Of a stretch of 64,000 bases of DNA, positions 610 to 49,830 are shown one piece after another (position 1 is the first letter of the stretch; the number at the start of each line of letters is the position of its first letter). This DNA is from Paraphysomonas bandaiensis. Lineage: Eukaryota; Protista; Chrysophyceae. The stretch is taken from the NCBI GenBank assembly GCA_965644295.1, contig CBFFRP010000185.1, positions 128,284 through 192,283 on the forward strand, in the 5' to 3' direction. A program made the translations under genes and the position numbers. The notes beneath the pieces are model-generated. The model had not been told where the DNA came from. It saw nothing but the letters and a program-made list of their open reading frames with translations, and did not search any database.

Positions 610-1664
610 CTATTGATCTGGGGGTCTCCCTTTGGGATGGGTCTCCAGTGGTGTTGGAGGGGGCTCAGCGTTCTGGATTAGGGTCCTGAGTGCACCTAGT
701 TCCAGATGTGTGGGTTGAGAGTGGTGGGGATTGTTGGGAGGAGGAGTTGGGTTTGTAGTCTGTGTTACTGTGCTCCTGTGGGGCCGCGGGTGTAGATAGA
801 GTTGTCGAAGCCGTCGGCGTTGTGGAGGTCTGGGCAGTCCAGTGCTATGTCGGGTAGGACCTGTGAGGTGTGCACGTGTGTCTGGAGTCGGGGACGCTGT
901 GGGGGGTCTTCGTTGGACCCCTAGTAGTCGAAGGACTCTCGGACGTTGTCTTGACTGACTGCGTTTCGGACGGGGTCTCGGGAGTAGCCTGGGCGGCCTT
1001 TTGGACATGGTGATATAGCGACAACCGCGATCCTGTAGCATAAGCTTCGCTGCAGTGTAAAGCGGTTGCAGGAGATTAATAACCGCTGTTTCTAGGTTCC
1101 GTAGACTGTGTGCCGTCAGGTGGTTGTGTATGGCATCTTCGAAGACCGTTTCCAGTTGGGCTGCTGTGATGGTTCCAGTCCAGTATCTCTCGACCTGTGG
1201 GATGGAGGGATTCCAGGCTCTGCTGGAGAGTCTCCGTAGTGCAGATGTGATCCAGTTGGGTAAGGTCTGAGTTCTCTGTATTTCGTGGAGCACATTTTTA
1301 TGCGATTGAAATGCAGTTTCCCTTATTTGGGTGATGGATTCATGTGTGCAGTCGAGGCACATATGTTTTAGGGAATCTAGTCGAAACCCGCAGTCAGAGC
1401 ATGCGGCTTTGGTCAGGTCAAGCCCCTGTTTGGTTTTGGCCCGGTTCCTCCCTATGCAGAAAGATTTGTCCCATGTCAGTGCCGTGTTGAGTATTCTTTG
1501 GCGTAGATTTGAGCTGAGTTTGTCTTTGGATGCACTGCCATCCGCTTGAGCTAGTTTGCGCGGGAGGTGTACTCCGCTATTGGTCCAGTAGCCAGGCGCT
1601 CGATCAGGATTGTGTCCGTAGCGTTGATCTCTGGTTGAAGTGTAGTTCTCAAGTGTCCTTAGGT
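610..1664 (-). pseudogene. LINE-A ORF, C-terminal segment (CCHC zinc finger, basic Pro-rich tail ending PKGRPPDQ)
   Basis: Near-identical to ORF 21465..22907; CSDC..HMCLDC motif; cut off from the upstream ORF by the Gypsy insertion. Confidence 0.88.
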
Positions 1665-2773
1665 TGTAAACAACTCAGGTCTTGCAACCTAAGATCACTG
1701 AAAAGATATGTGAAATGGTTGTTTATCGAAACAACAAAACAGAATGCTTATTTAACTTATCACAGCCAGCAATACAAGCTCCCAAGTATCTCGCAACCTT
1801 AAGCTCCCAAAAGGTAGATCAATTAACTTAGCTATGATTAGTTAGATAAAAAAGAAGTGAGAAGACAGGTTCCTAGTCTAAGACCCCCATAGTACACATG
1901 TCAAGCAAACAACCAGCACCGTTCAATAAATATGACCATACATGCAGTACACTGAATACAGTTCATGTCCCATGTCCATTGTACCCAAAATGCGAACTGA
2001 AATAAGCCTAGAAAACGTCCTCACAGAAAACCGCCAGTTTACTGGTCCCGAAAAAACCAAAATCCCCGATTTCGGGACCGAAAACCCCAAAACCACCGGT
2101 TTTGGAATCTTACAGTAAAATCTCCGATTTCTGAGCTACAAAGACCCCAAAACAACCAATTCCCGAGTCTTGCAAGAAATCACCAATTATAGAGTCCCAA
2201 AAAAACAGAAAACACTAGTTTTCGAGTCACTAAAAATTCGCCAGCTCATTTCATGATAAACTCAATCTCATTCCAAACGTTAAATGCATTAACACATATC
2301 GATTTCGATTAACATTCCCAACGAAAGTTACACCTTCATATCTGTATCATATATCACCCATACCGTCCTCTCGCCATATGCCTAAGGCCCCTTTCCAATT
2401 TGTGCACCTTCCGGAGAAAATTGATGGAGTGTGATAACAGCAAATAGTCGTATAGCTGAGTCCAACGAGCTACTTAAATCGCTATAACACCGACACCGAC
2501 TACCATATGAATATAGGTGTATACCAGTGAGTAGAAATCCATTGCTCAAAACCGAAATTGTGTGCTCGAGGGCAAGTCCTAGTACTCTTCTTCCTCACAG
2601 TCCTCTCATAATATAATAATAAACATTTACTACATTCGTTTCCTATATTAAACCAGCTACATGCCTTAAATGAATATCATAGTTGTATTGGAGTTATATT
2701 AGTCAGTGTCATTATCATAATATTATATCATTAAACATGAGACAAGGGTGTTATAAAAGCCCACGGCTTTACA
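1665..2773 (-). repeat. 3' LTR of Gypsy element (1109 bp)
   Basis: Direct repeat of 8268-9375; by eye I found only a 1-nt and a 2-nt indel between them. Confidence 0.96.
2027..2245. repeat. Degenerate ~30-bp tandem array inside the LTR (also at ~8630-8847)
   Basis: About 8 units with quasi-palindromic cores such as aaaaccgccagttt, aaatccccgattt, aaaaccaccggtttt, aaatctccgattt, aaatcaccaatt, aaaacactagtttt. Confidence 0.6.
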
Positions 2774-2793
2774 TTACCCTTTCTCCCCCCTCC
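2774..2793 (-). other. Polypurine tract of Gypsy element
   Basis: Minus strand GGAGGGGGGAGAAAGGGTAA directly precedes the TGTAAA of the 3' LTR. Confidence 0.85.
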
Positions 2794-2804
2794 GGATGCT
2801 GTAG

Positions 2805-5800
2805 CTACTCCTGAATAATTTTGGGATAAGCCGCAGCCAGCGACGCATCAACCAAAATCATGCGAGTAGGGTCAAAATCCTTCTGGGATCCCCAACAGTA
2901 AACCAAATAGTTGTCGAACGCATAGTTGGCACCGTTAAGGTTAAATTGAGCGCTAATCTTACGTCTAGAATTCTTATGATACCAATGGGTATACGTAAAT
3001 TCCATGACATACGAAGCTGTTGCAAAATCTGGTAAACCCAGACTCTCGTACCACAGGTCACCGTAGAACCTGAGATCAACATAAACAACATCTCCAACCG
3101 ATACTGTTGTGATGTTCTCCTTCCTCATTGAAGAGATAAAACGCTTCGCCGTAAACGAGTCATACGCAAGATGCCGCAAGTAAGGCCTAGACTCGCAGAA
3201 ATCATAATATGCTTCACACTGAATATCCGGTGTCCATGGGATGTTCAGGATATCGCCGTCTGCATACTTCACCTTGAAAACCATCGTAGATTTGGTGCGT
3301 GAATCACCCGTATATGAAAGAATCTCCTCCACCTTAAATTGCTCATGGTCCCGCATCGCCGCTTCCATAGCGGATTCCTTATCTCCGAAAAATGGCTCAA
3401 GATCAGAGACAGAGTATTCCCGAATTCCCCCGGTAAGAAGATTTCGAATTTGAACATCATTCTTGTATTGCCGTACCACTTCGAAAGGACCCTTCATCCT
3501 CGAGGATAATTTCGGATGTGGTTTAGCACCAGCGTCGAACATAACAAAATCGCCTGGACAATACTGGTTTTGTTTGGCAGGATCCAAACCCGCTTCCGCT
3601 CGTTTCTCGACTAGAGACTTCTGGTAGTCTGCTGATATCTGACGAACAAGAGCTAAGTAATCGTTCAGCCTTTTCAACAGCTGATGAGACGGATCATTGT
3701 CTCTCCCTTGGGCAGCCAAAAGATTCTTATAGATAGAATCCTGGGACCCAAACGTCAGTTCGAATGCAGAATACCCCGTCTCACTACTCTCGTGGGTATT
3801 CAGAATGAACATGATAGTAGCAAGTAACAGTTCGTCCTCTAAAACAGCATCAGCTTCGATTCTCTTATCAAAACAAATAGCCCGGATGTGACGAACCACT
3901 TCCTTAATAATACGCTCACATCCGTTGACGTGCCTGTTGGCAATACTAAAAACATGACGAAGTCCTGACAACTTAACCAGTTCTGCGAAAAGTTCTGATT
4001 TGAGATCCGGACCCATATCTGATATAATCATATCCGTGAGCCCATATGTACACCAGCACTTCCACACTGCTGTAGCCAAATTGATAGCTGTCATTCCTTT
4101 CACCGCATATAGGTACACCAATTTCGTAAACAAATTAACCATGACCACAATATGCGTGTAACCAGATTTAGAAACAGGTGTAATAGCAACCGCGTCAATT
4201 CCCAGTGCACTCCTTGAATGAGGCGGTTTTAAATGTCTAGTGATAGGAATCAATCGCTGCTTCAGCTCTCTCCTATTCTTCTGACAGTTGATACATTCGT
4301 CCACGAAGTCTGCAACCACCTTGAAAGGCACGCCGTGTCCCGGAAATTGCCTACACAGACGTTTCCACGTCTCTTTCGCACCCCAGTGTCCTGCTTGCGC
4401 GTTGTGAACCTCTTTGATAGCCTGGTAATAATCTATCCTCTGTACCTCCGTAGGCGGCGCGATCTCTTGAACGTCGTCCTCAAAATCGTCTTTTTCAAAG
4501 ATGTTATGCAGTGTCACGAAGTTCACTTCATCTGAGTCGAAATCGTCACTTTCGTCCACAAATCCGGACAAATACAGCAATCTTGACAAGCAATCCGCAA
4601 CCACATTGTTCTTCCCTGGGATATGACGAATCAAAAAGTCAAAATCCTGCAAATAAATTCTCCATCGAATTATCTTCGCAACTTCTGATGCCTCCATCCA
4701 CACAAGGTTGTTGTGGTCCGTCTCGATTGTAAATTTCTTTCCTCTCAGATAAAACGAAAATTTCTTGACTGAATAGAATATACCAAAACCCTCCTTCTCA
4801 ATAGTACACCACTTCAAGGCTTGCTCTGACAATTTCTTGGAACAGATAGCAATAGTTTGCTGTTGAATCGGACTAGACCCAGTTCCCTCAACAGTCTGGA
4901 AAAGAATGCCTGCCACTCCATAGTCACTGGCATCTGTCCTAAGTGTCCACTCAAGATCATAATTCGGATAAAACAAAGCACAAGACTGTTGCAAACCACT
5001 CTTATATTTTTCAAACTCTTGCCTATAATCATGCTGCCATGTCGTTTCTTCCCAATTAAAACTACTCTTAGTCATATCCGTAAGATGTTTAACCAAATCT
5101 GAGTAATTCTGAACAAATGGAGCAAAGAATACTCCCATACCCAACAAAGATCTAATCTTCTTACATCTATTTCCATTCTCTGGAAAAGGAATATTCAATA
5201 AAGCCTCTTTCCTATCGTCCGTGAGCTCGAAACTATTGTGCCTTACCAAATAGCCAAAAAACTTGATCTCCCTAAATCCTAACCAGGTCTTTGCAAATTT
5301 CAACACAACTCCATGTTCAATGCATCTATCCAGGAAAATCTCCAGCTTCTTATACGCATCATCAAAATCATGTGCCAATAACAGAACATTATCAAATATA
5401 CACAGCGCCCATTCCAGATCTCCAAACAATTTGACTACCGCTTCTTGCAACACACTAATCCCTGGAGACACTCCCTCCGGAAGGAATAAAGGCTGAAATT
5501 GGCCCCACGGTGTTTGAACTGACAATTTTTCAGATGTGTTCTCATGCAACCTGATCTGATGGAACGCATTCGTGAGGTCAATGTCCATAAATATCTTATA
5601 GCCAATAATACGATCCAACTCATGTCTTACATTAGGAACTGTATAGTGTGGACTTGGAATGTACTTGTTGATTTGCACGTAATCCCCACAAATCCTAATA
5701 AAAGGTTTCGTGGCTTTTGGCGCGATCACCAAACAAGAAGCCCATGGCGACCTACTAGGAACATAGATGTAACCACACAGTCTCCTGAACTCCTTCTCCG

Positions 5801-6743
5801 CATCCTCATATAATCTAGGATTTACGGGTCTTGCCTTCGGCTTGATCCTAGGAGGCAAATTCTCAGCGAACTTGATGTTCAACGGATCCACTCCTTTTAT
5901 ACCTTCCCACCGCTCTGGAACAAATACCTCTACTCCCTTAGTCCTCAATAACTCCAGCACCGGTCGCGCTGCTGAGAACTCTGGGGACACGTGCTCACCA
6001 AACATATCCTCGAACTCGCTCAAAGCTTCCTCTCTAGTCTTTCCAAGAAAACTTGAGGCAAATCCGAACTGCGAAGGATCCGGAACATCCAATTCTTCAG
6101 GTGCTACCTCCCTACTACTGTCACACCACGGCTGCAATAATTCTTCAACCGCATTCAACAACAAATCATCCTCGGTAACATCGTCCTCACGCCTTTTAAT
6201 AAAACTTACTTCTGATTCAATTCGTTCAATAGTCCTTCCTTTAAGCATAAATAGAAAATAATCCCATAGATCCTTAACGATAGCCGGAAGTCCAATGATA
6301 ATATCGTTGCTACCCATATCAGCAACAATGAAATCCCCTTCATATAACACGAACTCTCCCTTGGAGTCTTCTCTTTCAAACCTCAATTTTAATTTCACTA
6401 CAAAACTACACTTCATTCTCGACGTTTTATCGGCAAATCCTATAACTGTTTCTTTTTTTATGACTTTGTTTTCACACACATGATTTCCAAACGTCTCAAA
6501 CAAATCCTTGGAGATGAAGTTAGATGTTAGGGCTCCAGTGTCGAACAATATTCCACGCACAGATATTATATAGTTATCATCACATACAATGCTTCCCCCA
6601 GAATGAGCCAATGTCAAGTCTTTTCGTTCTCGCGTATTACAGACATTCATCAAATTTCTGAGGAAAACTCGACTAACAGTCTCAGGATCATTCAAACCGT
6701 ACAATATTTCTTCGTGATCCTGTGAACCATTAGCCTCGCACAT
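2805..6743 (-). CDS. pol: Gypsy Pol polyprotein (protease, RT, RNase H, integrase, chromodomain-like region, extra C-terminal domain)
   Basis: LFDTGA (protease); DLTNAFHQI...LPEG...IFDN (RT); TDASDYG...TDH...ADCLSR (RNase H); H-x5-H...C-x2-C and D,D,E (integrase); GPF; FKVEEIL...FKVKY...PW (chromo-like). Open 1312-aa frame. Confidence 0.95.
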   Translation of the reverse strand: MCEANGSQDHEEILYGLNDPETVSRVFLRNLMNVCNTRERKDLTLAHSGGSIVCDDNYIISVRGILFDTGALTSNFISKDLFETFGNHVCENKVIKKETVIGFADKTSRMKCSFVVKLKLRFEREDSKGEFVLYEGDFIVADMGSNDIIIGLPAIVKDLWDYFLFMLKGRTIERIESEVSFIKRREDDVTEDDLLLNAVEELLQPWCDSSREVAPEELDVPDPSQFGFASSFLGKTREEALSEFEDMFGEHVSPEFSAARPVLELLRTKGVEVFVPERWEGIKGVDPLNIKFAENLPPRIKPKARPVNPRLYEDAEKEFRRLCGYIYVPSRSPWASCLVIAPKATKPFIRICGDYVQINKYIPSPHYTVPNVRHELDRIIGYKIFMDIDLTNAFHQIRLHENTSEKLSVQTPWGQFQPLFLPEGVSPGISVLQEAVVKLFGDLEWALCIFDNVLLLAHDFDDAYKKLEIFLDRCIEHGVVLKFAKTWLGFREIKFFGYLVRHNSFELTDDRKEALLNIPFPENGNRCKKIRSLLGMGVFFAPFVQNYSDLVKHLTDMTKSSFNWEETTWQHDYRQEFEKYKSGLQQSCALFYPNYDLEWTLRTDASDYGVAGILFQTVEGTGSSPIQQQTIAICSKKLSEQALKWCTIEKEGFGIFYSVKKFSFYLRGKKFTIETDHNNLVWMEASEVAKIIRWRIYLQDFDFLIRHIPGKNNVVADCLSRLLYLSGFVDESDDFDSDEVNFVTLHNIFEKDDFEDDVQEIAPPTEVQRIDYYQAIKEVHNAQAGHWGAKETWKRLCRQFPGHGVPFKVVADFVDECINCQKNRRELKQRLIPITRHLKPPHSRSALGIDAVAITPVSKSGYTHIVVMVNLFTKLVYLYAVKGMTAINLATAVWKCWCTYGLTDMIISDMGPDLKSELFAELVKLSGLRHVFSIANRHVNGCERIIKEVVRHIRAICFDKRIEADAVLEDELLLATIMFILNTHESSETGYSAFELTFGSQDSIYKNLLAAQGRDNDPSHQLLKRLNDYLALVRQISADYQKSLVEKRAEAGLDPAKQNQYCPGDFVMFDAGAKPHPKLSSRMKGPFEVVRQYKNDVQIRNLLTGGIREYSVSDLEPFFGDKESAMEAAMRDHEQFKVEEILSYTGDSRTKSTMVFKVKYADGDILNIPWTPDIQCEAYYDFCESRPYLRHLAYDSFTAKRFISSMRKENITTVSVGDVVYVDLRFYGDLWYESLGLPDFATASYVMEFTYTHWYHKNSRRKISAQFNLNGANYAFDNYLVYCWGSQKDFDPTRMILVDASLAAAYPKIIQE

Positions 6744-6746
6744 TTG

Positions 6747-8201
6747 TCAAGTCACTCCACCAGGCCTCGGCAAAATCTTTCGCGGCCCTTTGGAATCATC
6801 TGCCATCATCTGAGACAGCTTCTTCATCATCCATTTCCGGGTTTCCGTTGCAACTGCTCCATTATGACCCTGGACATGCTTACACTCCTTCCCTTTGTAG
6901 CAGTTCCCATACAACGCATACGCAACACAACCACGGGTTGGATTAACAGTCTTCTCCAGGTTCATCACCTGTTCTATAGCTTCCTTATCAGACTCTGGTT
7001 CGCCGAGCAACATCTCCTCAACCTCATTCTCGAAATCATCATCTGACATCCCGTCATCCTTGACCACAACTATCGGGTCAACCTCCTTGTCATCTAAATC
7101 ACTGTAGAAATCATCCTCAACTCGGTCCGCAAACTGCACGTTGTTTAAAGATTTCGGTTTCTCCTTTGCAACGTATCCATTGTCCCGATTCCTCGAACTC
7201 CTTTGAATTTGCTTCCTACTGAAATCGGACCCTTCATAAGGCACCAATCTAATGTTCTTGGACGCCTCATAATGCTCACTCGCCTTGGAAACGTATGTAT
7301 CCAGAAACTCTTCAACATTACCATAATTAGTATCCGTCACTCTTGGAATCTCCGCCAGAATTCGTTTGTTGTAAGACTCGTCGATCAACTCCAAAAATAC
7401 TTGAGCAGATCCAAACTCTTTTCCTCCAACCGGCGGACACTTAGTACTATTTGCCTCCATCATGATAGTAAACGTACGCATAAAAATACTCTTTCGCTTC
7501 AAAATCTCTTGAAAAAACAGCTCATGTGTATTCGGCCGCACTGATTTCCAATCCAGTGGCTTAAAATATCTCAGCGCGTATCGCAAAGTCTCAATGAACT
7601 CCACTTTAGACAACACCTTGGTCTCCTTAGCCATCAGTTCACAAAACTTTTGAGCACTCAGCTTAACAAACATTTTATCCGTCAAGCTATTGTTGAACAT
7701 AAGCAGGTTCCGAACACGCCTGCTAACTATCTGGGCTGGCTCAAGTTTAATCCCATTGATCTGTTCGTATTCAAACCATTGGATGATAAACTTTGTAAAA
7801 TCGCTGAGCTCCATCGAATCCAGAAAAATATGCTTATGTGGCGGTTTTTCAACATTGATAACGACCTGTTTCCTAACCTCTATGTCATCCGAGCCTTGCG
7901 CTTCCCTAATAAACACAGAAGTTCGCCTTTCCTTCTTTTTCTGTTTCGGATCTTCAGCAGATTCATCATCCTGCTCCTCTCGTCTGGCACCGACACTATC
8001 ATTGACCTCCTGCTGAACCGCTGCCAGCTCATCCAGAAACTGTCCCTCTCCTATGGCAACCCTTGTCTCAAGGTGGTCCACCCTACCAGCGGTCGTTGCA
8101 CACAACTTTGCAACCTCTCCTAACTCATTAGCGATTACTCTCAACATTCCTTTGATTTCATCCATTTCGGAAGAGACAATGGGACTGCCCGAATCAGACA
8201 T
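6747..8201 (-). CDS. gag: Gypsy Gag-like protein with N-terminal coiled coil and CCCH-like finger
   Basis: First ORF after the 5' LTR, in frame with pol; C-x8-C-x5-C-x5-H motif near the C-terminus. Confidence 0.85.
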   Translation of the reverse strand: MSDSGSPIVSSEMDEIKGMLRVIANELGEVAKLCATTAGRVDHLETRVAIGEGQFLDELAAVQQEVNDSVGARREEQDDESAEDPKQKKKERRTSVFIREAQGSDDIEVRKQVVINVEKPPHKHIFLDSMELSDFTKFIIQWFEYEQINGIKLEPAQIVSRRVRNLLMFNNSLTDKMFVKLSAQKFCELMAKETKVLSKVEFIETLRYALRYFKPLDWKSVRPNTHELFFQEILKRKSIFMRTFTIMMEANSTKCPPVGGKEFGSAQVFLELIDESYNKRILAEIPRVTDTNYGNVEEFLDTYVSKASEHYEASKNIRLVPYEGSDFSRKQIQRSSRNRDNGYVAKEKPKSLNNVQFADRVEDDFYSDLDDKEVDPIVVVKDDGMSDDDFENEVEEMLLGEPESDKEAIEQVMNLEKTVNPTRGCVAYALYGNCYKGKECKHVQGHNGAVATETRKWMMKKLSQMMADDSKGPRKILPRPGGVT

Positions 8202-8267
8202 AATTTAAAAAATCTATTTCCTTAAAACTATTCTTCACTTATGTGATTTTATCGTGAGTAAATTTAC

Positions 8268-9375
8268 TGTAAACAACTCAGGTCTTGCAACCTAAGATCA
8301 CTGAAAAGATATGTGAAATGGTTGTTTATCGAAACAACAAAACAGAATGCTTATTTAACTTATCACAGCCAGCATATACAAGCTCCCAAGTATCTCGCAA
8401 CCTTAAGCTCCCAAAAGGTAGATCAATTAACTTAGCTATGATTAGTTAGATAAAAGAAGTGAGAAGACAGGTTCCTAGTCTAAGACCCCCATAGTACACA
8501 TGTCAAGCAAACAACCAGCACCGTTCAATAAATATGACCATACATGCAGTACACTGAATACAGTTCATGTCCCATGTCCATTGTACCCAAAATGCGAACT
8601 GAAATAAGCCTAGAAAACGTCCTCACAGAAAACCGCCAGTTTACTGGTCCCGAAAAAACCAAAATCCCCGATTTCGGGACCGAAAACCCCAAAACCACCG
8701 GTTTTGGAATCTTACAGTAAAATCTCCGATTTCTGAGCTACAAAGACCCCAAAACAACCAATTCCCGAGTCTTGCAAGAAATCACCAATTATAGAGTCCC
8801 AAAAAAACAGAAAACACTAGTTTTCGAGTCACTAAAAATTCGCCAGCTCATTTCATGATAAACTCAATCTCATTCCAAACGTTAAATGCATTAACACATA
8901 TCGATTTCGATTAACATTCCCAACGAAAGTTACACCTTCATATCTGTATCATATATCACCCATACCGTCCTCTCGCCATATGCCTAAGGCCCCTTTCCAA
9001 TTTGTGCACCTTCCGGAGAAAATTGATGGAGTGTGATAACAGCAAATAGTCGTATAGCTGAGTCCAACGAGCTACTTAAATCGCTATAACACCGACACCG
9101 ACTACCATATGAATATAGGTGTATACCAGTGAGTAGAAATCCATTGCTCAAAACCGAAATTGTGTGCTCGAGGGCAAGTCCTAGTACTCTTCTTCCTCAC
9201 AGTCCTCTCATAATATAATAATAAACATTTACTACATTCGTTTCCTATATTAAACCAGCTACATGCCTTAAATGAATATCATAGTTGTATTGGAGTTATA
9301 TTAGTCAGTGTCATTATCATAATATTATATCATTAAACATGAGACAAGGGTGTTATAAAAGCCCACGGCTTTACA
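8268..9375 (-). repeat. 5' LTR of Gypsy element (1108 bp)
   Basis: Direct repeat of 1665-2773 with TG...CA ends. Confidence 0.96.
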
Positions 9376-12300
9376 AGGTCGCAGAGATCCTGGAAATTAG
9401 TAAGGAGTGGGCTAGAGTAGTATGGCCGTCTTGTACTGTGCATACGCCAGTGCCATAATCCAGCAGTTAGTAAGCGTTCGATGGCACTGTCAATCGCAAT
9501 TGTACAGACAGTGTAGTTATTTTTTCCAAGGATGCGATCGACTTCATGCCAGTCTTCACCCGCAACTGCGTCCGCAATATAGATGCCCTTGTCCTCAAAC
9601 GTCCACTCCGTTTCATCTGTGGTACGTCTTTCGGGATGAGACCTCACCCAGGTCACCTGTCGTTTGCAATCTCTGCTGGCTGCGATGCTTTCGAGTAGTA
9701 CCCCTTTTGCACGGTGACCGAGAGCTCTGCGTCTTGTGGAGAGTGCTTCCTCAGTGCGGGTGCACACTGCCTGACAGTCTGTGTGGCTTCTTATGTGTTC
9801 GGGAATACGTGTTGAGAGTATAAGCCCCATGGCTGTGCCTATGAGTTCATATGCGTATGAGTCCAAACCGGGCACGTCACGAAAGGGTGTATCTAGTCGT
9901 AGTATTGTGGTTGTACCATCTTCCCAGGCATTTTCTGGGGGTAAGTAGACGACCGCTGCACCTCCTCGGTGTGTCCATCGGGTTCGCGGATTGACATGAG
10001 TGAGGCGACGAGTGGAGAGCGCACTGGCTGTGTATGATCCATCTGTGAAGATAGCCTTGAAAGTATCTGGTTGGACACTATTAAGGCCGAGTTCTTGTTT
10101 TAGGTTGGTCAGCATGTGTTCATCCTGTGGTTCGGGGGGCTCAGGTTCCTGAAGGGTAAGGCCCAATTCCGTTCCCCATTCCCTGAGGCTGAGAACATAG
10201 TGGTGGTATTGGGGCTGTGGCTCTGTTGTCTGAGTGAGTAGAAAATGTGCTGCTTGACCTGCTTCTCCCCCGAGGGTTATTGCGCGCTGTAGAGATCCCC
10301 ATTTTTGCTCCTGCGCTGAGTCTGTGAAACGTTTCATACCTAATCCGTTGTGCTTGAGTGAGAGGTAGATCAGTTCCGTGGGGTATCCAGGGCCTAGACT
10401 GAGGGCCTTTCTGTAGAGGGTTGCGCAAGCAGCGTCAATTTCTCTGTACCAGTGTAGCGGCCATGAAGCTTTGGTGGCTCTATATAGAGCAAAGTCGGTA
10501 TGATTTGGGTCTCGATAACCATGACTTTACAGCCGGCTGAGGCCTGTTTGATCCCTAGGTGTGTGGTCACGACTTTCAGGTATTTTAGACACCAGTCATG
10601 GGAGGCCTTGTCTGTGATTGTGAGAGGAAGGTCTGCTCCGAGGTAATGTATCGACTCTAGTGATGTTTGGATAGGGACTGGGTGTGGGCGCCATGACCAG
10701 TCGTAGAGAATGATGTAGCCAATGGGGTCGGAGGACTTGTTGGAATCCTGTAGGATCGGAAACACTGTGCAAACTACTTTGGGGATAGAGAGTTCCATTC
10801 CCGAAAGTACGCAGAACGCAGATATTTGTTGGGCAATGAGTTGGGCAGCGTGTATGGATTTAGCTATTGTGTTAAGATCATCCGCGAAGGAGATCTTTAT
10901 TTCGCCTGTAGTCGGAGTCGTGAGTTGAATAGTTGGTAACGTTGGACTCGTTGTTGACAGTTCAATGTCCAGCCACGTGAGAAGGATGTCGTAGAGTGCC
11001 ACCCAGGCGCATGTGGATTCTGTGCCCCCTTGGGTGATACCCCTTTCGGCTTCGAAACCCAGACTGAATAGTGCAATGAAGTGGCCGTCTGCGGACAGGA
11101 GGTCAAGGAGAGAACGTGGCTCTATGTTGTTTGCCATGAATGGTGTCCAGGGAAATGTTAGACCGCCGGCATCTAAGTTGCCAAACCAGTCAACTACATC
11201 GTCCGGAACGCCCAGTCGTGCCCACGCGAGACGCATGAGGTTAGGCGCAATTGAGTCGAAGGCCTTCTTGAAGTCCCAGAGTGTACATATATGCTGGTCG
11301 CCTTTTCGTCTTGCTTCTTCTGCAGCCGCGAGTACCCGTAGTATCGCTGTGTCCGTCCCGTTCCTCCAGCGATAACCATGCTGGGACGGATGCAAAACTT
11401 TCTGTTCCTCCCATACGGTAAGAATTCTATGAGTGATTATCCTTGTTAATATTTTCCTACTGACTTCAAGCAGACCAATCGGTCGGAGATTAGTGAGGGA
11501 GGATTCTCCTGGTTTCTTGAGAATGGGAGACATTACCCTGTCTCTCCACCAAATGGGCACATGTTTATGTTTCCAGAGAGATCTGGTGAGGATGTAAGCC
11601 TCTCGCTGAACTACCGGTGGCCAGGATTTGACCATGTTGGAGGAGACCATTGAGGGTCCAGGCGCGCGGTTGAAGGATAGAGAGTGAAGTGTGCAGTAGA
11701 ATTCATCCTGGGTGATGTCTTTTGCAAGAGTAGATTTGAGTGTGGCTGCCATGGCCGGAGTGGTCTTGGTACAAAGGGCCCGTCGTAACCCCAGTTGCAG
11801 GGGAAGAGGAATTTTCGAGCGGGGGTGGAGTGGTTCCTGGCATGTCGCTGAGCCCGGATCAAGAAGTGATTTCCACCATGTAGGGTCATCCTGGAGCTGT
11901 TGTGCTACAGGGTCAAGTCCAGGAGGTTTGGCATGATGTTCACGGAAGTGCGCATTAATGCCTTCATGAATGTCTTGCGGCGTTGTGAGGATGTGTCCGT
12001 CCGTTGTTTTCACCGTGGTAAGTCGGAGTGGTGTTTTGACCTTGAGACCAATTTTCTGAAGAATTGCTTGAAGTCTTTTCTGCTGTAGCAGTGCCTCCAT
12101 CTGCTTGGTGCGAGCCGTGAGTCTAGTCCGCATTTCTGTCCTGGCTCTTCCATGAAGAAGTCCTCTCAGTCGCAAGGCAATTCGGAGAAGGTTTTTCTTG
12201 GTGGCTTGCTTTGCGTTCCAACCCAGGATTACTCGTGGGTCCGCGTTGCGGTGGCTGCACCAGAAGTTGATGTCCGATATGCCTTTGATGTGACCCTGAG

Positions 12301-13036
12301 AACTCCTGAGATAGGAGTCCCATCGGGCGAACCATGCAGTGATGATTTCGTGGGTGGGGGTGGTTGCCGGGGGGCCGCGCCATCCATGCCGTTTGTATCC
12401 AGCAGAATTGAACATCTTTTGGATAATCCGCAAAACCATGAGCATTCCTTCCTGTATTACTCTCATTTCCGGGGAAAAGCCATTCTTGAACTTTGAGCGT
12501 GTGCGCTGACAACGTTCGTGTAGGCGTGTGCTATGTGTACATGCAGGACGCTTCGCCTCAAGCGAAGCCTGGAGGGTTATGTGATGGATGGCCGCTAGTC
12601 TGTTGGCTGCCACCTCAGGAGGGAGTATGGCAGTCGATCCGTTGTCTAAATGTGGTAGTTGTGCATGAAGTTGGAGGAGTCTTGCGGTGTATGCCTGTAC
12701 TGCCTTGGAGTCCTTCGGGTTTACATTGAGACGGGGGGGGATTCGGAGGTGCGACTCAGGTGGTCGAGGGTCAAGATTGACTGGTACGGTGAAACCGACC
12801 CAGACCGGTCGATGATCGAAGGCTGCTGCGAGTAATGAGGGGGAGTCAAGGCAGCCAGTGTCCGTAACAGACATGTTCGGAGGTAACGGCGTGTGTAGAA
12901 TATGATCGATCCGCGATATTCCTTTGTCTAATCTGTGGAAGGTATGATATGTTTTCCTGGGTAGGAGAAGCTCATGGAGTGGTGCAGCCAGTTGGAGTTT
13001 GTCGGCTGGGATGAGGTTGTTGTTCAGAAAGCTATT
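9376..13036 (-). pseudogene. LINE-A ORF: APE endonuclease C-terminus, reverse transcriptase, RNase H; +2 frameshift at ~10483
   Basis: SRIDHIL...DHRPV (APE end); LRPIGL, QHGYR, DFKKAFDS, GITQG, FADD (non-LTR RT); FTDGS...ELIG...TDCQ...WVRSH...IAD (RNase H). Removing one TA from ctcTATATAgag joins ORFs 10394..13060 and 9333..10337. Confidence 0.9.
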
Positions 13037-13269
13037 CGAAAAAAATAGAATTGAAAGCAATTAAATGGATGCTTTATAATAATAAATTTTGCTGTCTTCT
13101 ACTACTGAGAATTATTTATACATCATATATGAATATAACAAGAACAAAATTTTAAACATGCGCAAATCACCCAAAACTATGGGATTTAAGAAATCCAATA
13201 GTCTACAGCCTAAGCATATATAATATTATAATATTATTGGAATACGTATGTTTCCCTAAGATAGAACTG

Positions 13270-13858
13270 TCGCTCAACAAAGTCAGACTCTCACACCCAG
13301 AGCAGGGGGATAAGTACCGGAGATATTATATTTCTCCGGGAAAGTAATGAGAGCCACATGTATAGTCAGAAGATAGCGTTCTGCTCACTCATAGTCAACT
13401 GTTGTGTGGTACAAGGGACACTAATAAGTTTATTCGTCGGGTGATTGATGCCTGTTTATTCGTCAAGGCCCAAAGACGTCTACACAAGAAATACTTAATA
13501 GTGTCCCTTGTACCACACAAGCATTTGGCTATGAGTGGGCAGAACAACAATTGCTGACTATATAATATATGCGGCTCACGTTTGTTTCTCGGAGAAATAT
13601 CCCCGATATTTATCCCCCAGCCAGAAAATCACGAAAAGGTGCGAGGGTCCGACTTTTTGTTGAGGGTGAAAAGTCAAACATCCGGGCTGTTCACCTCAAG
13701 GACAGAGCGAAAGTGGTTGCCCCTTGTTGCTTGTGGGGATGCACAAGCAACTTTTTAGTAACTCCACATAATAGTTAAGCACTACTAGTTAATTAAATTG
13801 TTTGCTGCATTAGTTCTGATTCTTACATGCCTATTACTCATAATCAGACATTCACTAC
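13270..13858 (+). mobile_element. SINE-like element with inverted duplicated head; 12-bp TSD AAGATAGAACTG
   Basis: TSD at 13258-13269 and 13859-13870; head forward (~13270-13430) then inverted (~13447-13667); LINE-type 3' tail ending aatcagacattcactac. Confidence 0.8.
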
Positions 13859-14785
13859 AAGATAGAACTGCATTACTCGTGAAAGACAATATTGAAACAA
13901 TATATTATATGCAAACGTGGAAAAAAAAATCCACTTTTTTGACGTGTATTCCTTCTTGTTAAAACTAGCGAGTTACTAGAGTGCTATATTATTGACTAAT
14001 ATTGCAAAAATTAATATTATTTCAGTATAAAAATGAGCTCAAATAACCGTTTGATTTTTATGTATGTGAATTTGCTACAAACTAGTTCTAGCTAGTCATT
14101 GTATAAACTTAAAACCACATAATTACTTAACAGAAGAGCAACAAACATGCAATGCACACTCTACTCTTTTACTTAATGTAAAAAATTGTAATATGTGCGT
14201 AGTCAAAATACAAAATACTATCTATATTATATATAGATAACTATACAACGGGAGTATCGTGACAATTCTATATACGGAAGTTTATCAGTGATTGCTATCA
14301 GAATGCTAAAATTATGGTGGTGATGAGCTTTATGCGAAATGACACTTGTGAATGCAATTATAATAATGTATTAAAGTAATGTATCAAACTTTCTTCAATG
14401 TGGTATATAATTGCCATTATTGGATATCAATTAAATGTTGCGCAAGCCTGGTGAATACGATACTACTTGACGACGCATTGTTAAGTGATTAAGTTAATAT
14501 ATGATTTGACAATTTGTGTCATGCGTTAGTATTTGATTCATGTATAATACGTCACAGCAACGTTATTGATGTATGTAGTATTTCAATATATTAAGACACT
14601 TCACTTTCTAATACAGTTTAATACATCAGAACATGTAGCAATGTATTAACAGTCAACACAACGTCAATTTATGCACACGATGTCGCTTACTCACGACCAC
14701 CATACACTCTAGTTTGTATGAGAATGTAATCTTTATGGTCTTTTTTATATCTAATGAAAAACCATAACAGATAGGTATTTGAATG

Positions 14786-18690: not shown

Positions 18691-19274
18691 CAAGAAAACA
18701 CGCTGTGAACAAAAGTGTACTAAAGTAAGTGTGTGGACATATAGGCATGAAAGCCACGCTGTGTAATTAAAATCAAAATCTAAAAACAAGGAATTCTTAT
18801 TTAACATTCAGGAATTCACGAAACCAGGGCTAAAAGACAAAATCAACATTTTCTACAAACTCCAAAATCAAATTTCCTCTTTCCTCTTGCAACAATTATT
18901 GAAATGAAATTCAATAACATGACAACATATCGCTGAAGAAATAGAGAAAGGTAGATCCATATATACATAGAGAACCCATATATGTATATACATATACATA
19001 AGATACACGTAGTGAACCCAGTGAAACTGCGTGACAAAATGCATTCATTCTTAGTTCTAGTTAATAAGCTCACATGCTCACCAAACCCACTACGCTTGCG
19101 AAAGAGTGGAATACCTGCTGCTCAAACAATCACAACTTTCTTGATACTCCTGATACTATCAGAAAAAATGCGATCATGATTACGAATACAGTGTCACACG
19201 CCACAAGCAGACTTCTACTATACTAGGCTACACAACAACAGTACTTGAATTGTTACCCACTTGCTGATTTCTAC

Positions 19275-19678
19275 GTATGTATGTATGTATGTATGTATGT
19301 ATGTATGTATGTATGTATGTATGTATGTATGTATGTATGTATGTATGTATGTATGTATGTATGTATGTATGTATGTATGTTTGTATGTATGTATGTATGT
19401 ATGTATGTATGTATGTATGAATGTATGTATGTATGTATGTATGTATGTATGTATGTATGTATGTATGTATGTATGTATGTATGTATGTATGTATGTATGT
19501 ATGTATGTATGTATGTATGTATGTATGTATGTATGTATGTATGTATGTATGTATGTATGTATGTATGTATGTATGTATGTATGTATGTATGTATGTATGT
19601 ATGTATGTATGTATGTATGTATGTATGTATGTATGTATGTATGTATGTATGTATGTATGTATGTATGTATGTATGTAT
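19275..19678. repeat. (GTAT)n microsatellite, ~101 units
   Basis: Seen directly; two single-base interruptions (~19381, ~19420). Confidence 0.99.
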
Positions 19679-19752
19679 CTTCAGAGTGGAATTGTATTTT
19701 TCTGTTAACTTTAAGAGTGATCGATTATCGATTGCAGGGCTCTGGGTCGAAT

Positions 19753-21222: not shown

Positions 21223-22978
21223 GTAGTGAATGTCTGATTATTTAGCAATAGGCGTTGAGACCTTGCAGCAATTAGTGGCTAGAAGAATGCTAGTCATACT
21301 AGTTAGACCACTACCCGTAACTAATCAATACAAACTCTTTTATCCTACTATTTAACGCTACGAAAGCTGCTTGTGCGTCGCCGCAAGCACCAAGGTGCAA
21401 CCACTTCCGTTCTTTTGTGTGATATGAAATTCGCCTTTATCGTGTGTCCGTGGACTCACCGGCGCTATTGATCTGGGGGTCTCCCTTTGGGATGGGTCTC
21501 CATTGGTGTTGGAGGGGGCTCAGCGTTCTGGATTAGGGTCCTGAGTGCACCTAGTTCCAGATGTGTGGGTTGAGAGTGGTGGGGATTGTTGGGAGGAGGA
21601 GTTGGGTTTGTAGTCTGTGTTACTGTGCTCCTGTGGGGCCGCGGGTGTAGATAGAGTTGTCGAAGCCGTCGGCGTTGTGGAGGTCTGGGCAGTCCAGTGC
21701 TCTGTCGGGTAGGACCTGTGAGGTGTGCACGTGTGTCTGGAGTCGGGGACGCTGTGGGGGGTCTTCGTTGGACCCCTAGTAGTCGAAGTACTCTCGGACG
21801 TTGTCTTGACTGACTGCGTTTCGGACGGGGTCTCGGGAGTAGCCTGGGCGGCCTTTTGGACATGGTGATATAGCGACAACCGCGATCCTGTAGCATAAGC
21901 TTCGCTGCAGTGTAAAGCGGTTGCAGGAGATTAATAACCGCTGTTTCTAGGTTCCGTAGACTGTGTGCCGTCAGGTGGTTGTGTATGGCATCTTCGAAGA
22001 CCGTTTCCAGTTGGGCTGCTGTGATGGTTCCAGTCCAGTATCTCTCGACCTGTGGGATGGAGGGATTCCAGGCTCTGCTGGAGAGTCTCCGTAGTGCAGA
22101 TGTGATCCAGTTGGGTAAGGTCTGAGTTCTCTGTATTTCGTGGAGCACATTTTTATGCGATTGAAATGCAGTTTCCCTTATTTGGGTGATGGATTCATGT
22201 GTGCAGTCGAGGCACATATGTTTTAGGGAATCTAGTCGAAACCCGCAGTCAGAGCATGCGGCTTTGGTCAGGTCAAGCCCCTGTTTGGTTTTGGCCCGGT
22301 TCCTCCCTATGCAGAAAGATTTGTCCCATGTCAGTGCCGTGTTGAGTATTCTTTGGCGTAGATTTGAGCTGAGTTTGTCTTTGGATGCACTGCCATCCGC
22401 TTGAGCTAGTTTGCGCGGGAGGTGTACTCCGCTATTGGTCCAGTAGCCAGGCGCTCGATCAGGATTGTGTCCGTAGCGTTGATCTCTGGTTGAAGTGTAG
22501 TTCTCAAGTGTCCTTAGGTCGCAGAGATCCTGGAAATTAGTAAGGAGTGGGCTAGAGTAGTATGGCCGTCTTGTACTGTGCATACGCCAGTGCCATAATC
22601 CAGCAGTTAGTAAGCGTTCGATGGCACTGTCAATCGCAATTGTGCAGACAGTGTAGTTATTTTTTCCAAGGATGCGATCGACTTCATGCCAGTCTTCACC
22701 CGCAACTGCGTCCGCAATATAGATGCCCTTGTCCTCAAACGTCCACTCCGTTTCATCTGTGGTACGTCGTTCGGGATGAGACCTCACCCAGGTCACCTGT
22801 CGTTTGCAATCTCTGCTGGCTGCGATGCTTTCGAGTAGTACCCCTTTTGCACGGTGACCGAGAGCTCTGCGTCTTGTGGAGAGTGCTTCCTCAGTGCGGG
22901 TGCACACTGCCTGACAGTCTGTGTGGCTTCTTATGTGTTCGGGAATACGTGTTGAGAGTATAAGCCCATGGCTGTGCC
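21223..22978 (-). mobile_element. LINE-A copy 2, 5'-truncated within RNase H
   Basis: Near-identical to 370-1664 plus 9380-9839; ORF 21465..22907; 3' end cattcactac. Confidence 0.95.
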
Positions 22979-23200
22979 AATCTGGTATTAGTAGTAGTAA
23001 TTCGTTATGTCAGTTACTGTGATGTGTTGCATATTGGTATGTACTAGTAATATTCTTTAGAATGTAAGATAGATTGTAACAAGTTGTTTAAAACTAAAGT
23101 ATTGTGAAATCTGTTTTTTCAATTTTTGATGCGTGATCACGAGTGTAAGCAACACTCAAATTTTTGTAAAAATGTGAAGTATATACTGGATTGTATACAA
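22976..23200 (+). repeat. 225-bp direct repeat, right copy
   Basis: Matches 20998-21222; GCC microhomology with the LINE 5' truncation point. Confidence 0.93.
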
Positions 23201-23275: not shown

Positions 23276-23495
23276 ATAGTATTGAATGTCTGATTATTAG
23301 CAATAGGCGTACAAGAGTCGGAACTAATTTCACTAACAAGTGCTTAACTCTGATATTTTACAACTTGGCGCTACGAAATCTATTTGTGCGTCACCGCAAG
23401 CATCAAGCACCAAGGTGTAACCACTTTCGCTCTAGCACTCAAATCAAACGCAGTGAGCTAGCAGAATTCTGACTTCAGGACTGTGAGTCTTTAAG
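23276..23495 (-). mobile_element. 5'-truncated SINE-like copy (3' tail only)
   Basis: Reverse complement matches 48200-48429 and 56310-56534, including the structured core. Confidence 0.8.
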
Positions 23496-26208: not shown

Positions 26209-29200
26209 TTATTCAGCTGACTCCATATACATTATTAAACACTCAGCATTCTTATCATTCCACATCATGTCGGACTCTGCATACAGCCGAATCGCTGCAA
26301 TTCTAGATCTCATGATGGATAGAGCAGTTGCCAAGTGGTCCGAGTTCGGAGTTCGAATGTCGATGCAAGCCTTATGAAGTGCTAGCAGTGCAACTCGGCA
26401 ACTGTCCAACAGAGCCGATAGGGACTCACACAACAAATCGTAGTCATCAGGTATGCTTTCTCTTGGTACACCAGAACTAACAAACGTCGCATCCACAATA
26501 TCATATATATAATGTCGCAACACCTCCATAAAATGCCCAAACCCTGTAGGCGATGCCGCGTATAGTTCACCTTTTAACTGTGCATATTTCCCTCTCAAAC
26601 GGTCAGAATTGAAATGAGCTACTGCCTGAAACGCCTGACGTATCTGCCTAAACGCACTGAAGAAAAATCTTTCCTCTTTGGCAGAGTAATGCGCATAGGC
26701 CAATTCAGAACGTCCTCTAACTCTGTACCGGTGCAAGTCACCCCACGTGTGTCGAGAGAGTGCGGTTAACTGAGAGAGCTCAAGCAGTCGCCTCGTGACC
26801 AAAGAGAGTGCGTCAATATGCTCGCCAGACAGCATCATACTTAGTGGCCAGGGGGGTTCAAATCGCACCTTCAATTTCTGAAGTCCTTCTATAGAAAAGG
26901 CTCCGATCAGATGTTTGTACCGGAATCCATCTACCACATCTATTGCATTCGAGTGCCCGTCAATTAGGGTGTGTAACACAGGGACTGCCGCGGCTCGCTG
27001 GTGCTCCTCTTTTACCTCATCATCAGTCATCAGGGTGCGTTTTCCTGCACTACTTTCTTCCTCGTCGGCCATCACTAGTCCAACGACATCTGTAGAGGCT
27101 TCGTTCGGTTGCTGAGAAAGTGCCTGACAGAACGCAGCAGCCACGGCTCGAGAAGACCAGAGATGCGAAGGTCGCTGAGGGGGCACATCTGGCTGCGTCA
27201 CAGTAATTGATCCACTCATAATTTTGGAGAATCTCATGCTACAATTCGCTTGGATATGTGTATCCACCAATATCCCACCAATAGTCACCAGGAAATTGCT
27301 CTGATCCGACAGTAAAAATATATGGTGAAGGCAGTCAATATAATCTAAAAGGCGCGTGTCTTGAATTGCTCCCAGCAAGAATGCCTGGTCAATGGCAAGG
27401 CACTGAGTCCGTATTGGTGCACAAAGGCTATCGCGCACAACACATGTAGATGGAAGTAGGGAGAAAGTCGACAGCAGTGAAGAATCAGGATTCCTCTTAT
27501 CATCACAATTATCAGTATCAAGAAGAAAGGGAATGTTGTTAGCCCGGCATAGATCTGAAATAGACTGTCGGAAGCATGATTTTTCTAGAAAATTATCTTC
27601 AGCAGATGTCACCCATTCGTCAAGAGAATAGAACTCTTTTAGAGCAGACAAGTAGTCATTTTCATCCTCATGAACCCTAGATTCTGAGAAACGAACGCCA
27701 GAATTAAAACTCATATCAACATCTGTACCCCCACTATTAACCAACTCCTCATCACCAATTCCAAAATCCTTACCAGCAAATCCACAATCACGAACACTAT
27801 CACTAAACACAACAGAACTATCGCCACTCTTCCCACCATCAATATCAGAGTCACCGCCATCATGGTGACGCAAACTCAGTGAACTATTACCTCCTGGTGC
27901 CTGATGAACATGCTGCGAACTACGCACTCCAATATCAATCGTTGCACCATCAATATCAGATTCACCGCCATCATGGTGACGCAAACTCAGTGAACTATCA
28001 CCTCCTGGTGCCTGATGAACATGCTGCGAACTACGCACTCCAATATCAATCGTTGCACCATCAATATCAGAGTCACCGCCATCATGGTGACGCAAACTCA
28101 GTGAACTATCACCTCCTGGTGCCTGATGAACATGCTGCGAACTACGCACTCCAATATCAATCGTTGCACCATCAATATCAGAGTCACCGCCATCATGGTG
28201 ACGCAAACTCAGTGAACTATCACCTCCTGGTGCCTGATGAACATGCTGCGAACTACGCACTCCAATATCAATCGTCTCACCTTCAATATCAGATTCACCG
28301 CCATCATGGTGACGCAAACTCAGTGAACTATCACCTCCTGGTGCCTGATGAACATGCTGCGAACTATGCACTCCAATATCAATCGTCTCACCATCAATAT
28401 CAGAGTCACCGCCATCATGGTGACGCAAACTCAGTGAACTATCACCTCCTGGTGCCTGATGAACATGCTGCGAACTACGCACTCCAATATCAATCGTCTC
28501 ACCATCAATATCAGATTCACCGCCATCATGGTGACGCAAACTCAGTGAACTATCACCTCCTGGTGCCTGATGAACATGCTGCGAACTACGCACTCCAATA
28601 TCAATCGTCTCACCATTAACATCAGAGTCACCGCCATCACGGTGACGCAAACTCAGTGAACTATCACCTCCTGGTGCCTGATGAACATGCTGCGAACTAC
28701 GCACTCCAATATCAATCGTCTCACCATCAATATCAGATTCACCGCCATCATGGTGACGCAAACTCAGTGAACTATTACCTCCTGGTGCCTGATGAACATG
28801 CTGCGAACTACGCACTCCAATATCAATCGTCTCACCATCAATATCAGAGTCACCGCCATCATGGTGACGCAAACTCAGTGAACTATCACCTCCTGGTGCC
28901 TGATGAACATGCTGCGAACTACGCACTCCAGCATTAATCGTCTCACCATTAACATCAGAGTCACCGCCATCATGGTGACGCAAACTCAGTGAACTATCAC
29001 CTCCTGGTGCCTGATGAACATGCTGCGAACTACGCACTCCAGCATTAATCGTCTCACCATCAATATCAGAGTCACCGCCATCATGGTGACGCAAACTCAG
29101 TGAACTATCACCTCCTGGTGCCTGATGAACATGCTGCGAACTACGCACTCCAATATCAATCGTCTCACCATCAATATCAGAGTCACCGCCATCATGGTGA

Positions 29201-47949: not shown

Positions 47950-48429
47950 CTCTCAACAATGTAGGACTCGCACCTTCTGGGGGATAAATACCGGAGAAAC
48001 TAACGTGAGCCGAATATATAGTCAGTACATATTGTTCTGCCCGCTCATAGCCTAATACTTGTGTGGTGCAAGGGGGGCACTAACAAGTTTTGCGTGTTGA
48101 CGAATAAACAGGCATCCGGGACTGGGCCCACCTCAAGAGTACCAAGAGGGTATTGGGCTGCCTGTTGAAGTCAGTCATCCAGGATGAGTTCATCTTAAGG
48201 AATCAACAATCCTGAAGTCAGCAGCTGTCAGGTATATCTACATTCTGCTTGTTCACTGCGTTTGGTTTGAGTGATAGAGCGAAAGTGGTTGTACCTCTTG
48301 GTGCTTGCGGTGACGCACAAGCAGCTTTCGTAGCGTTAAATAGAGTAAGATATATATCAGAGTTAAGCACTAAATTTGTCCTGACTTTCAAATGCCTATA
48401 TATTGCTAATAATAAGATATTCACTACTA
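47950..48429 (+). mobile_element. SINE-like element, older copy
   Basis: Colinear with 56053-56534 in head, core and ttcactacta tail; no clean TSD. Confidence 0.82.
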
Positions 48430-48782: not shown

Positions 48783-49830
48783 CAGGGCCTGGTAACCATT
48801 AATGGCCCAGTAATGGTAGTCCAGTTCCCGGCAATTATAATGGCCCATTAATGGCCATTAATACCTACTAACTTAAAGAAGCAGATAATACCGCTCATAT
48901 AATATATTGTGTGGTGCTCCCTTAATTACTAATTTTTAATTAAAAATAACAGACTACTTCTCGCTCTCTACTGGGGCACATCAGGATCTTCTTGCAGGGC
49001 TTCATGGAGGGTATAAGCATCCCACAACACGGCTCGTAAGAATAGCAACGATTCTAGACGATATAGATTCATGTGTCTACGCTCAGATGTCATAATCAAC
49101 TTTGCACGACTAAAGATCCTCTCAACAACATTAGAATGTGCTTCAATATGAAGCAAGCAGCGGTAGTGGACTAAGAGGTACTATAAGTCGCTGTCTAGAA
49201 CAAGCTGTGCAAAATCAGTTCTTTCACTCTCGTCCTCGTTATTTCTGTCGGTTGCACCAACATCAATGGATGAATCTAGTTGCAGTTGATGTATAACTGC
49301 TCTTCTCTCATTGCCTGTCAACTCTCTTTTATAGTTCCCTTGAATTTTTTAGCCATTGCCTTCTCAAAAATTGCACTGGCAACAATGCTTGCATTCAGGG
49401 AAAGGTATGGATATATATATATTGACAGCTTATTATTTAGCAGTAGGCGCTAAAAATCTGCACCAATGTAGTGGCTAGTTAGTTGAATGCTATAAGCAGA
49501 CTATTTAGACCTCTATCCATAGCTAATCAGCACAAACGCTATTATCCTACTATTTAACGCTACAGAAGCTGCTTGTGCGTCGCCGCAAGCACCAAGGTGC
49601 GACCACTTCCGTTCTTAATGTTGATTGTGAGTTTCGCCATGATCGTGGCAACAATGCTTGCATTCAGGGAAAGGTATGGATGCAGCTCTGGAAATTCTTG
49701 TAGCAGTATATCAAATAACTGGCGGGCTTGGTACAAATTGGTTCCAACTCTTTGTAAGGCAAGCGTAACACTCTGTAATTTTTCAAGCTGTGTCAAACAT
49801 TGTTTCAGCTGGAGTAAGAATCTGTAGAAA
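48783..49830 (-). mobile_element. hAT DNA transposon remnant (family 2, TIR CAGGGCCTGGTAA)
   Basis: TIR shared with the MITE at 55797; transposase fragments SNVVERIFSRAK..RRHM..LESLLFLR (hAT dimerisation domain) and LQSVTLALQ; other end not found. Confidence 0.8.
49413..49645 (-). mobile_element. LINE-A-related 3' UTR fragment inserted in the hAT remnant; 36-bp TSD
   Basis: tggcaacaatgcttgcattcagggaaaggtatggat at 49377-49412 and 49646-49681; insert homologous to 380-590; (TA)n tail. Confidence 0.88.

Follow-up and report, generated by a model that had tools for sequence, protein, structure and literature searches.

Introduction

The second Asp of the reverse transcriptase (RT) motif C, YxDD, has been replaced by Asn in two yeast LTR retrotransposons. 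For Ty3, the indispensable metal ligands are described as the Asp of motif A and the first Asp of motif C: the D151N and D213N enzymes lose polymerase activity, D214N is active in vitro with low processivity, and all three mutations are lethal for transposition (PMC5371799). The Ty1 mutant D211N, a laboratory form of a copia element, still polymerizes, with kpol down 223-fold and a preference for Mn, and transposition is lost, which agrees with what a preliminary description of the present sequence had said of it; RNase H suppressors bring back 5–10% of transposition (PMC2148107).

Asn also occurs naturally at this position. In nematode Belpaoviridae (Caenorhabditis elegans Cer7–Cer12 and the hookworm Atlas element) an Asp-to-Asn change giving YVDN is lineage-wide in intact LTR elements (PMC554778, PMC9094657), including elements with identical LTRs (PMC9094657); PMC554778 (2005) left the activity of such an enzyme open. 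Outside the retroelements, Asn is the last motif C residue in the natural palm folds of birnaviruses (ADN; PMC3121795) and of negative-strand viruses (GDN; PMC9752661), which, unlike the protein studied here, are RNA-dependent RNA polymerases, the birnavirus palm being permuted as well.

Here we analysed a 64,000-nt window of Paraphysomonas bandaiensis DNA (contig CBFFRP010000185.1) containing an LTR retrotransposon whose RT, like the Ty1 D211N enzyme and the nematode elements, has Asn in place of the second Asp.

An intact, recently inserted Ty3/gypsy element

The element is made up of the following parts:

9376–9379, plus strand: right copy of the target-site duplication AGGT
8268–9375, minus strand: 5' LTR, TG...CA, 1108 nt
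6747–8204, minus strand: gag, 485 aa; a Cys-rich knuckle lies close to the C-terminus
2805–6746, minus strand: pol, a single open frame of 1313 aa (protease DTG at 69–71; RT; RNase H D605, E652, D677 and D718; integrase with HHCC and D851, D910 and E944; C-terminal extension)
2808–3359, minus strand: C-terminal extension of the integrase, chromodomain-like as a lead only
2777–2793, minus strand: polypurine tract, 3 nt ahead of the 3' LTR
1665–2773, minus strand: 3' LTR, TG...CA, 1109 nt
1661–1664, plus strand: left copy of the target-site duplication AGGT, 4 bp

The element is an intact Ty3/gypsy LTR retrotransposon of recent insertion. The Pfam matches on Pol (RVT_1, RT_RNaseH, Integrase_H2C2 and rve) stand in the Ty3/gypsy order of protease (PR), RT, RNase H (RH) and integrase (IN), and the two LTRs differ by no substitution and by two indels, of 1 and 2 nt. 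The preliminary description, which had called the rest of Pol intact and the LTRs near-identical, was correct on both counts. The element sits inside a LINE (610–1664 and 9376–13060, minus strand; FADD RT and a long C-terminal part), and the insertion is recent, because a sister copy of the LINE that is 99–100% identical retains the empty site, near 22506. The LINE is also broken by a frame change near 10394–10526; the sister copy, which is partial, lies further along the window near 21226–23009. Marine metagenomes and two metatranscriptome libraries contain near-identical copies of the element; the RNA contigs are a record of presence only and say nothing on transcription, its level or its strand.

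The gag product had no Pfam match; in the Atlas it led, weakly, to clusters of the CCCH and retrotransposon Gag types. Its stop is a single TGA (6747–6749) in frame with pol; the same gag-TGA-pol arrangement was seen in the relatives L008, L011 and L020/L021, and many other relatives have one fused frame. As judged from these frames, Pol is likely to be made by readthrough of the TGA. The C-terminal extension of the integrase reached Atlas scores of at most 0.80 with named matches in the Chromo clan, and had no Pfam Chromo match; the SH3-like tail may be chromodomain-like, which would be a point of likeness with Tf1-type elements and chromoviruses.

Ty3 was the best PDB sequence match both for the protein (E 2e-41) and for the profile of its clade. 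Typical Ty3/gypsy features that are present include direct TG...CA LTRs, the polypurine tract, a short target duplication, the order of Pol and an RT nearest to that of Ty3, while motif C is IFDN in place of YxDD and a tRNA primer-binding site of the TGG type was not found. What defines the family is the descent of the RT together with the architecture, and the assignment stands despite IFDN. Compared with Ty3 itself (PDB 4OL8/7Q5B), the element shares the PR-RT-RH-IN order, and D214N, with in vitro activity kept, is the same substitution; Ty3 differs in having YLDD, TTLD, PFGLVNAP and a tRNA primer, and in that D214N is lethal there, whereas Asn is the selected state here (PMC5371799).

Membership in BEL/Pao, the superfamily of the nematode YVDN elements, was ruled out by an integrase spacing of 33 residues between D910 and E944, against 45–53 in BEL/Pao (PMC554778), by the best match to Ty3 and by a CCCH-type Gag. 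The Gag of the element has one Cys-rich knuckle, as opposed to the triple Cys-His box of BEL/Pao, and a CCCH pattern was found in 44 of 62 long single-frame relatives, with CCHC in none of the 62. The BEL/Pao motif is YV/MD[DN]; the nematode YVDN elements, with their DD(45–53)E integrase and Env, keep Tyr-Val (PMC554778, PMC9094657), where the present element has Ile-Phe together with DxD in motif A and PEG in motif B. By these sequence comparisons, xDN in the Ty3/gypsy clade is of separate origin from xDN in nematode BEL/Pao.

Several other features of the window were recorded. For a host gene next to the element, the named relatives are from Mallomonas, Ochromonas and a chrysophyte, at 49–53% identity and ranking under many unnamed matches, which makes a chrysophyte-like alga the likely host. 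A Ty1/copia RT-RNase H with canonical YVDD occupies 62135–64000 (minus strand) and continues past the window end. A frame of 1838 aa at 26209–31725 (minus strand) holds about 18 tandem repeats of 111 nt (37 aa) at 27714–29903, and a long microsatellite array with a 4/8-nt unit lies at 19168–19700. Long imperfect inverted repeats (∼91–93%) at 55100–55581 and 58438–58911, and also at 61351–61411, enclose ∼2.9 kb and possibly belong to a DNA transposon. Short dispersed repeats were seen near 370–560, 13324–13860, 21226, 23277–23467, 47980–48340, 49428–49618 and 56090–56540.

Motif C of the RT reads IFDN

The RT motifs on which the rest of the analysis turns are:

5577–5585, minus strand: motif A, D388-I-D390, with the catalytic D390 and an extra acidic residue at −2
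5457–5480, minus strand: motif B, PEGVSPGI, aligning to PFGLVNAP of Ty3
5388–5399, minus strand: motif C, IFDN (ATA TTT GAT AAT), Pol residues 450–453

In a HMMER alignment, IFDN falls column for column on YLDD of the Ty3 RT (PDB 4OL8), so that two residues of the motif, the Tyr and the second Asp, are not those of Ty3: I450 stands at the Tyr position, D452 is the essential first Asp, and N453 occupies the position of the second Asp. Codons and alignment thus agree with the original reading of the motif as one in which both residues are changed.

The chance that IFDN reflects a sequencing error, or an inactivating mutation private to this copy, is negligible. Four of four independent DNA runs, from four studies, each gave a single contig over 4550–5920 with the identical codon; the 5–6 differences in each run were all located and none falls in the motif. 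In the element's own 90% cluster, IFDNVLL is present in the representative and in 9 of the 10 members listed, the tenth being a fragment without the site, and across the 79 cluster members read, FDN was found in all 54 that cover the site. The DNA runs, the cluster members and the clade relatives described below all have the Asn, and error and private mutation are refuted by them.

Asn is fixed across a large clade

Relatives were gathered by overall similarity, with the motif playing no part in the search. The resulting pool holds 264 distinct clade proteins, two canonical multi-RT polyproteins having been dropped and four distant long proteins left out. All 264 have Asn at 453. Sister copies with xxDD, which the preliminary description had named as evidence against a changed lineage, were looked for among these proteins, and Asp was found in 0 of 264. 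D452 is present in 263 of 264 (one E); position 451 is F in 248, H in 9, Y in 6 and M in 1, and the common states at 450 are Ile (228) and Leu (20), never Tyr. Of the 243 RT columns, whose median conservation is 63%, only 8 are fully invariant, and N453 is one of them.

Other ways of collecting relatives gave the same picture. Among 558 RT-RNase H relatives, the best 120 (53–99% identity) all read xFDN. Asn was present in 148 of the best 150 cluster representatives (147 xxDN, one FEN); the two exceptions, with ∼26% identity, are canonical multi-RT polyproteins that were ranked by summed domains. At the DNA level, 14 loci at 39–67% identity have xDN without exception, and loci at 22–29% read DD. 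The clade extends down to ∼40% RT identity. A search for long relatives returned 6 proteins, 2 of them within the clade, and scans of viral contigs for a sister clade or further full elements gave nothing new. Matches in a plasmid search were apparent eukaryotic contaminants and were left out of the counts.

For a quick IQ-TREE tree, the trait columns were taken out of an alignment of 65 xDN and 14 xDD rows, the 14 comparison rows being few and opportunistic. One branch parts the 65 from the 14 (SH-aLRT 99), with a stem of 0.92 changes per site. A single change on this tree is enough to explain xDN, and intermediates are absent among its rows. There is, then, a large Ty3/gypsy clade in which Asn replaces the second motif C Asp.

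Some members are filed in unexpected places or have additional domains. L020 is an IMG/VR contig of 7739 nt, that is, a clade member among viral contigs, recorded as circular with one LTR and a 123-nt terminal overlap; L021 is its near twin and comes from a record that is labelled, by its name, as a giant-virus bin. This filing could reflect a one-LTR circle, a collapsed repeat or mis-binning. L004–L013 are clade members on short contigs of bacterial MAGs in a species genome collection, most likely through eukaryotic contamination. An exonuclease/endonuclease/phosphatase domain follows the integrase in some members (P0300, P0336 and P0347), and P0300 adds a SET domain. The sole FEN member, P0337, has Asn at −2 of motif A, lacks the motif A Asn, and is possibly a dead copy.

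Purifying selection on pol

Among the 15 DNA loci (the window and the 14 others), synonymous sites are saturated, with pS ∼0.7–1.0 in nearly all pairs, while for the RTs of L008 and L009 pN is 0.065 against a pS of 0.86. Of 41 coding differences listed for close copies, 32 are synonymous, with 16 synonymous and 5 non-synonymous in pol and 16 and 4 in gag. The catalytic residues and those on the dNTP side are kept: D390 and R351 in 263 of 263 proteins each, K344 in 260 of 263, the steric-gate F/Y in 263 of 263 and K486 in 261 of 261. The same holds for the other enzymes of the clade, with the protease D in 200/200, the RNase H D/E/D/D in 237/237, 230/232, 229/229 and 225/226, and the integrase D/D/E in 217/217, 214/214 and 212/212. 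The RT is under purifying selection. The family search proposed in the preliminary description has thus found the Asn of IFDN fixed in an RT under such selection, and its suggestion that the active site has changed naturally in a whole lineage is supported, from these sequences, by 264 of 264 proteins reaching down to ∼40% RT identity.

The preliminary description had offered mobilization in trans as its alternative. The polymerase would then be dead, either copied in trans by a canonical RT or retained only as a scaffold for RNase H. The failure of the matching Ty1 and Ty3 point mutants to transpose would fit such a reading (PMC2148107, PMC5371799), and canonical RTs of other classes, the LINE FADD and the copia YVDD, are at hand in the window. 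However, both essential aspartates, like the Arg and Lys that bind the dNTP, hardly vary across saturated synonymous distances, over which such residues would not persist in a dead polymerase. Similarity searches found no close xxDD relative that could act as helper, the nearest DD sequences being 22–29% identical, and multi-member clusters with many full-length frames exist. With its catalytic residues conserved and no close xxDD helper found in these searches, a dead enzyme mobilized in trans is very unlikely.

A further reading is that the Asn encoded by the gene becomes Asp in the working enzyme, either because the AAY codon undergoes A-to-I editing or because the Asn is deamidated. The codon in the window and the 14 loci is AAT in 7 and AAC in 8, with Asp in 0 of 15, and a single A-to-G change turns AAT into GAT. 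An Asn at a beta-turn can deamidate. Against editing, the edited genomic RNA would be reverse-transcribed and Asp would be fixed in DNA, yet 0 of 264 proteins have Asp. The metatranscriptome contig X17 (5376–5565) is identical to the window, although the codon is 12 nt from the contig end and contigs drop rare variants. Against deamidation, the residue that follows is bulky and hydrophobic (V/I/L/F/M), a context in which the reaction is slow. Editing and deamidation together are therefore given little weight, and we regard the reading as highly improbable. Because Asp is one A-to-G transition away and yet never present, the sequences suggest that Asp at 453 is now disfavoured in the present clade, beyond merely being unneeded.

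Co-fixed changes in motifs A and B

The Asn is accompanied by further changes around the active site. Motif A reads MDIDLTNAFHQ over TTLDLHSGYHQ of Ty3, and position 388, two residues before the catalytic Asp, is D in 250, E in 8 and N in 5 of 263 proteins; Ty3 has Thr there, and D and E are both absent from this position in the 14 canonical comparison rows. In motif B, Glu424 (E in 263 of 264, one D) stands where gypsy elements have Phe, Met or Tyr, and Pro428 replaces the conserved Asn in 240 of 264. Position 430, a conserved Pro elsewhere, is S in 191, T in 60 and I in 5, with Ile in this copy.

The preliminary description had proposed a structure model as a check. The AlphaFold model of the RT-RNase H (mean pLDDT 90.7) has XMRV RT (Z 29.3) and Ty3 RT (Z 28.9) as its nearest folds, along with MMLV and CaMV RT, and the predicted fold is thus an ordinary RT-RNase H one. 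By analogy with the HIV-1 RT structure, most of the co-fixed positions would face the primer terminus or pack on the x of YxDD, whereas the dNTP side is unaltered.

These changes raise the possibility that the RT is active with its third carboxylate moved, D388 of motif A or E424 of motif B replacing the lost Asp so that the three acids are rearranged. An acid is present at 388 in 258 of 263 and at 424 in 264 of 264 clade proteins, while neither position is acidic in the 14 canonical rows or in Ty3. By the predicted secondary structure of the model and the side-chain direction in HIV-1 RT, the −2 position would lie on the strand of motif A, next to the hairpin of motif C. On the other hand, the five members with Asn at 388 still carry N453, and the motif B position would be that of HIV-1 Q151, under the incoming nucleotide and not at the metal. 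The seven group II intron-type RTs examined all pair D or E at −2 of motif A with DD (7/7), which weakens DxD as proof of a replacement ligand. The nematode YVDN indicates that Asn can be tolerated in another background (PMC554778, PMC9094657). We consider a moved carboxylate unlikely, although it is the strongest competitor of the reading favoured below.

A palindrome at the primer-binding site

One more feature sets the element apart from Ty3:

8257–8268, either strand: perfect 12-nt palindrome at the position of the primer-binding site, taking in the last A of the 5' LTR

The primer-binding position after the 5' LTR was searched for a TGG tRNA-type site, independently of host tRNA sequences, and none was found in the window element, L020 or L001. 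L020 has a different palindrome, of 14 nt (7075–7088), starting from the terminal CA of a 432-nt LTR that is bounded by polypurine tract and TG...CA. L001 has a third, also of 14 nt (821–834), after TACA and ∼50 nt ahead of gag, the LTR end being inferred here from the palindrome itself. A chance palindrome is expected at ∼1–6 in 10,000 per position, and the AT-rich loci hold other palindromes too.

Two described priming systems bear comparison. Fungal GalEa copia elements, with their Conserved Hairpin Site, also have a palindrome in place of the tRNA primer site, with the final A of the 5' LTR as part of it, and have also lost the motif C Tyr (QTDD vs YVDD), but they belong to the copia superfamily, keep both aspartates and have a second complementary sequence that forms a hairpin (PMC5445492). 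Tf1-type self-primers likewise lack a tRNA primer site (PMC5445492), but the 11-nt complement that they have within the LTR was not found here. The longest LTR complement of the primer site reaches 7 nt in the window (6 nt in L020), against ∼11 nt expected for the Tf1 type; a 10-nt complement appears only when the region is extended by 5 nt of the LTR end, and was treated as possible chance. Self-priming of the Tf1 type is thus unsupported. Minus-strand priming would likely take place at the palindrome, independently of tRNA.

Discussion

The reading that we favour, and think probable from the sequences, is that this is an autonomous Ty3/gypsy element whose RT polymerizes in cis through D390 and D452, where N453 would be a neutral ligand or a partner in a hydrogen bond and co-fixed neighbours would compensate for the lost Asp. 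D390 and D452 would hold both metals in a two-Asp active site, N453 would act at the primer-side metal site, and the Ile for Tyr, the Phe at x, the motif A −2 Asp and the motif B Glu with Ser/Thr would restore turnover. The same neighbours would now make Asp at 453 disfavoured. That Asn can work at this site has precedents in the Ty1 and Ty3 mutants in vitro (PMC2148107, PMC5371799), in the intact nematode YVDN elements with identical LTRs (PMC9094657) and in birnavirus ADN (PMC3121795). Compensation is required on this reading because the same single change abolishes transposition in yeast, and its presence here is inferred. The roles suggested for the neighbouring positions follow by analogy from the HIV-1 RT structure. 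The co-fixed residues share one long stem (0.92 changes per site) and may be compensatory or simply inherited together.

A bolder version of the moved carboxylate is that, in a very large Ty3/gypsy lineage of protists, the third carboxylate was relocated to DxD or PEG and the primer-contacting face was rebuilt alongside a switch from tRNA priming to a palindrome-based RNA primer. We think this doubtful on the present sequences, and the link between priming mode and the remodelled active site, drawn from three elements, is speculation. If true, the relocation would be a natural high-fitness solution to the state that is lethal in Ty1 D211N and Ty3 D214N.

With regard to novelty, the preliminary description was borne out in that the active site is changed, but a natural D-to-N change as such had already been published for the nematode BEL/Pao YVDN elements (PMC554778, PMC9094657). 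The xxDN principle is therefore known; what appears new, from sequence comparison, is that it arose separately in Ty3/gypsy, never reverted there and was joined by loss of the Tyr. We found no description of an IFDN/YXDN-type gypsy clade in the literature searched, which lay outside Repbase, GyDB and subscription journals, and the clade appears to be undescribed, with an existing entry in Repbase or GyDB possible.

Why RTs have a third Asp, though two suffice for most of the chemistry, is an old open question. The clade offers hundreds of enzymes, diverged and under selection, that have Asn throughout without any return to Asp, and their co-fixed residues are candidate suppressors. Annotation pipelines in which an RT without YxDD counts as dead would lose an entire clade that is read here as active.
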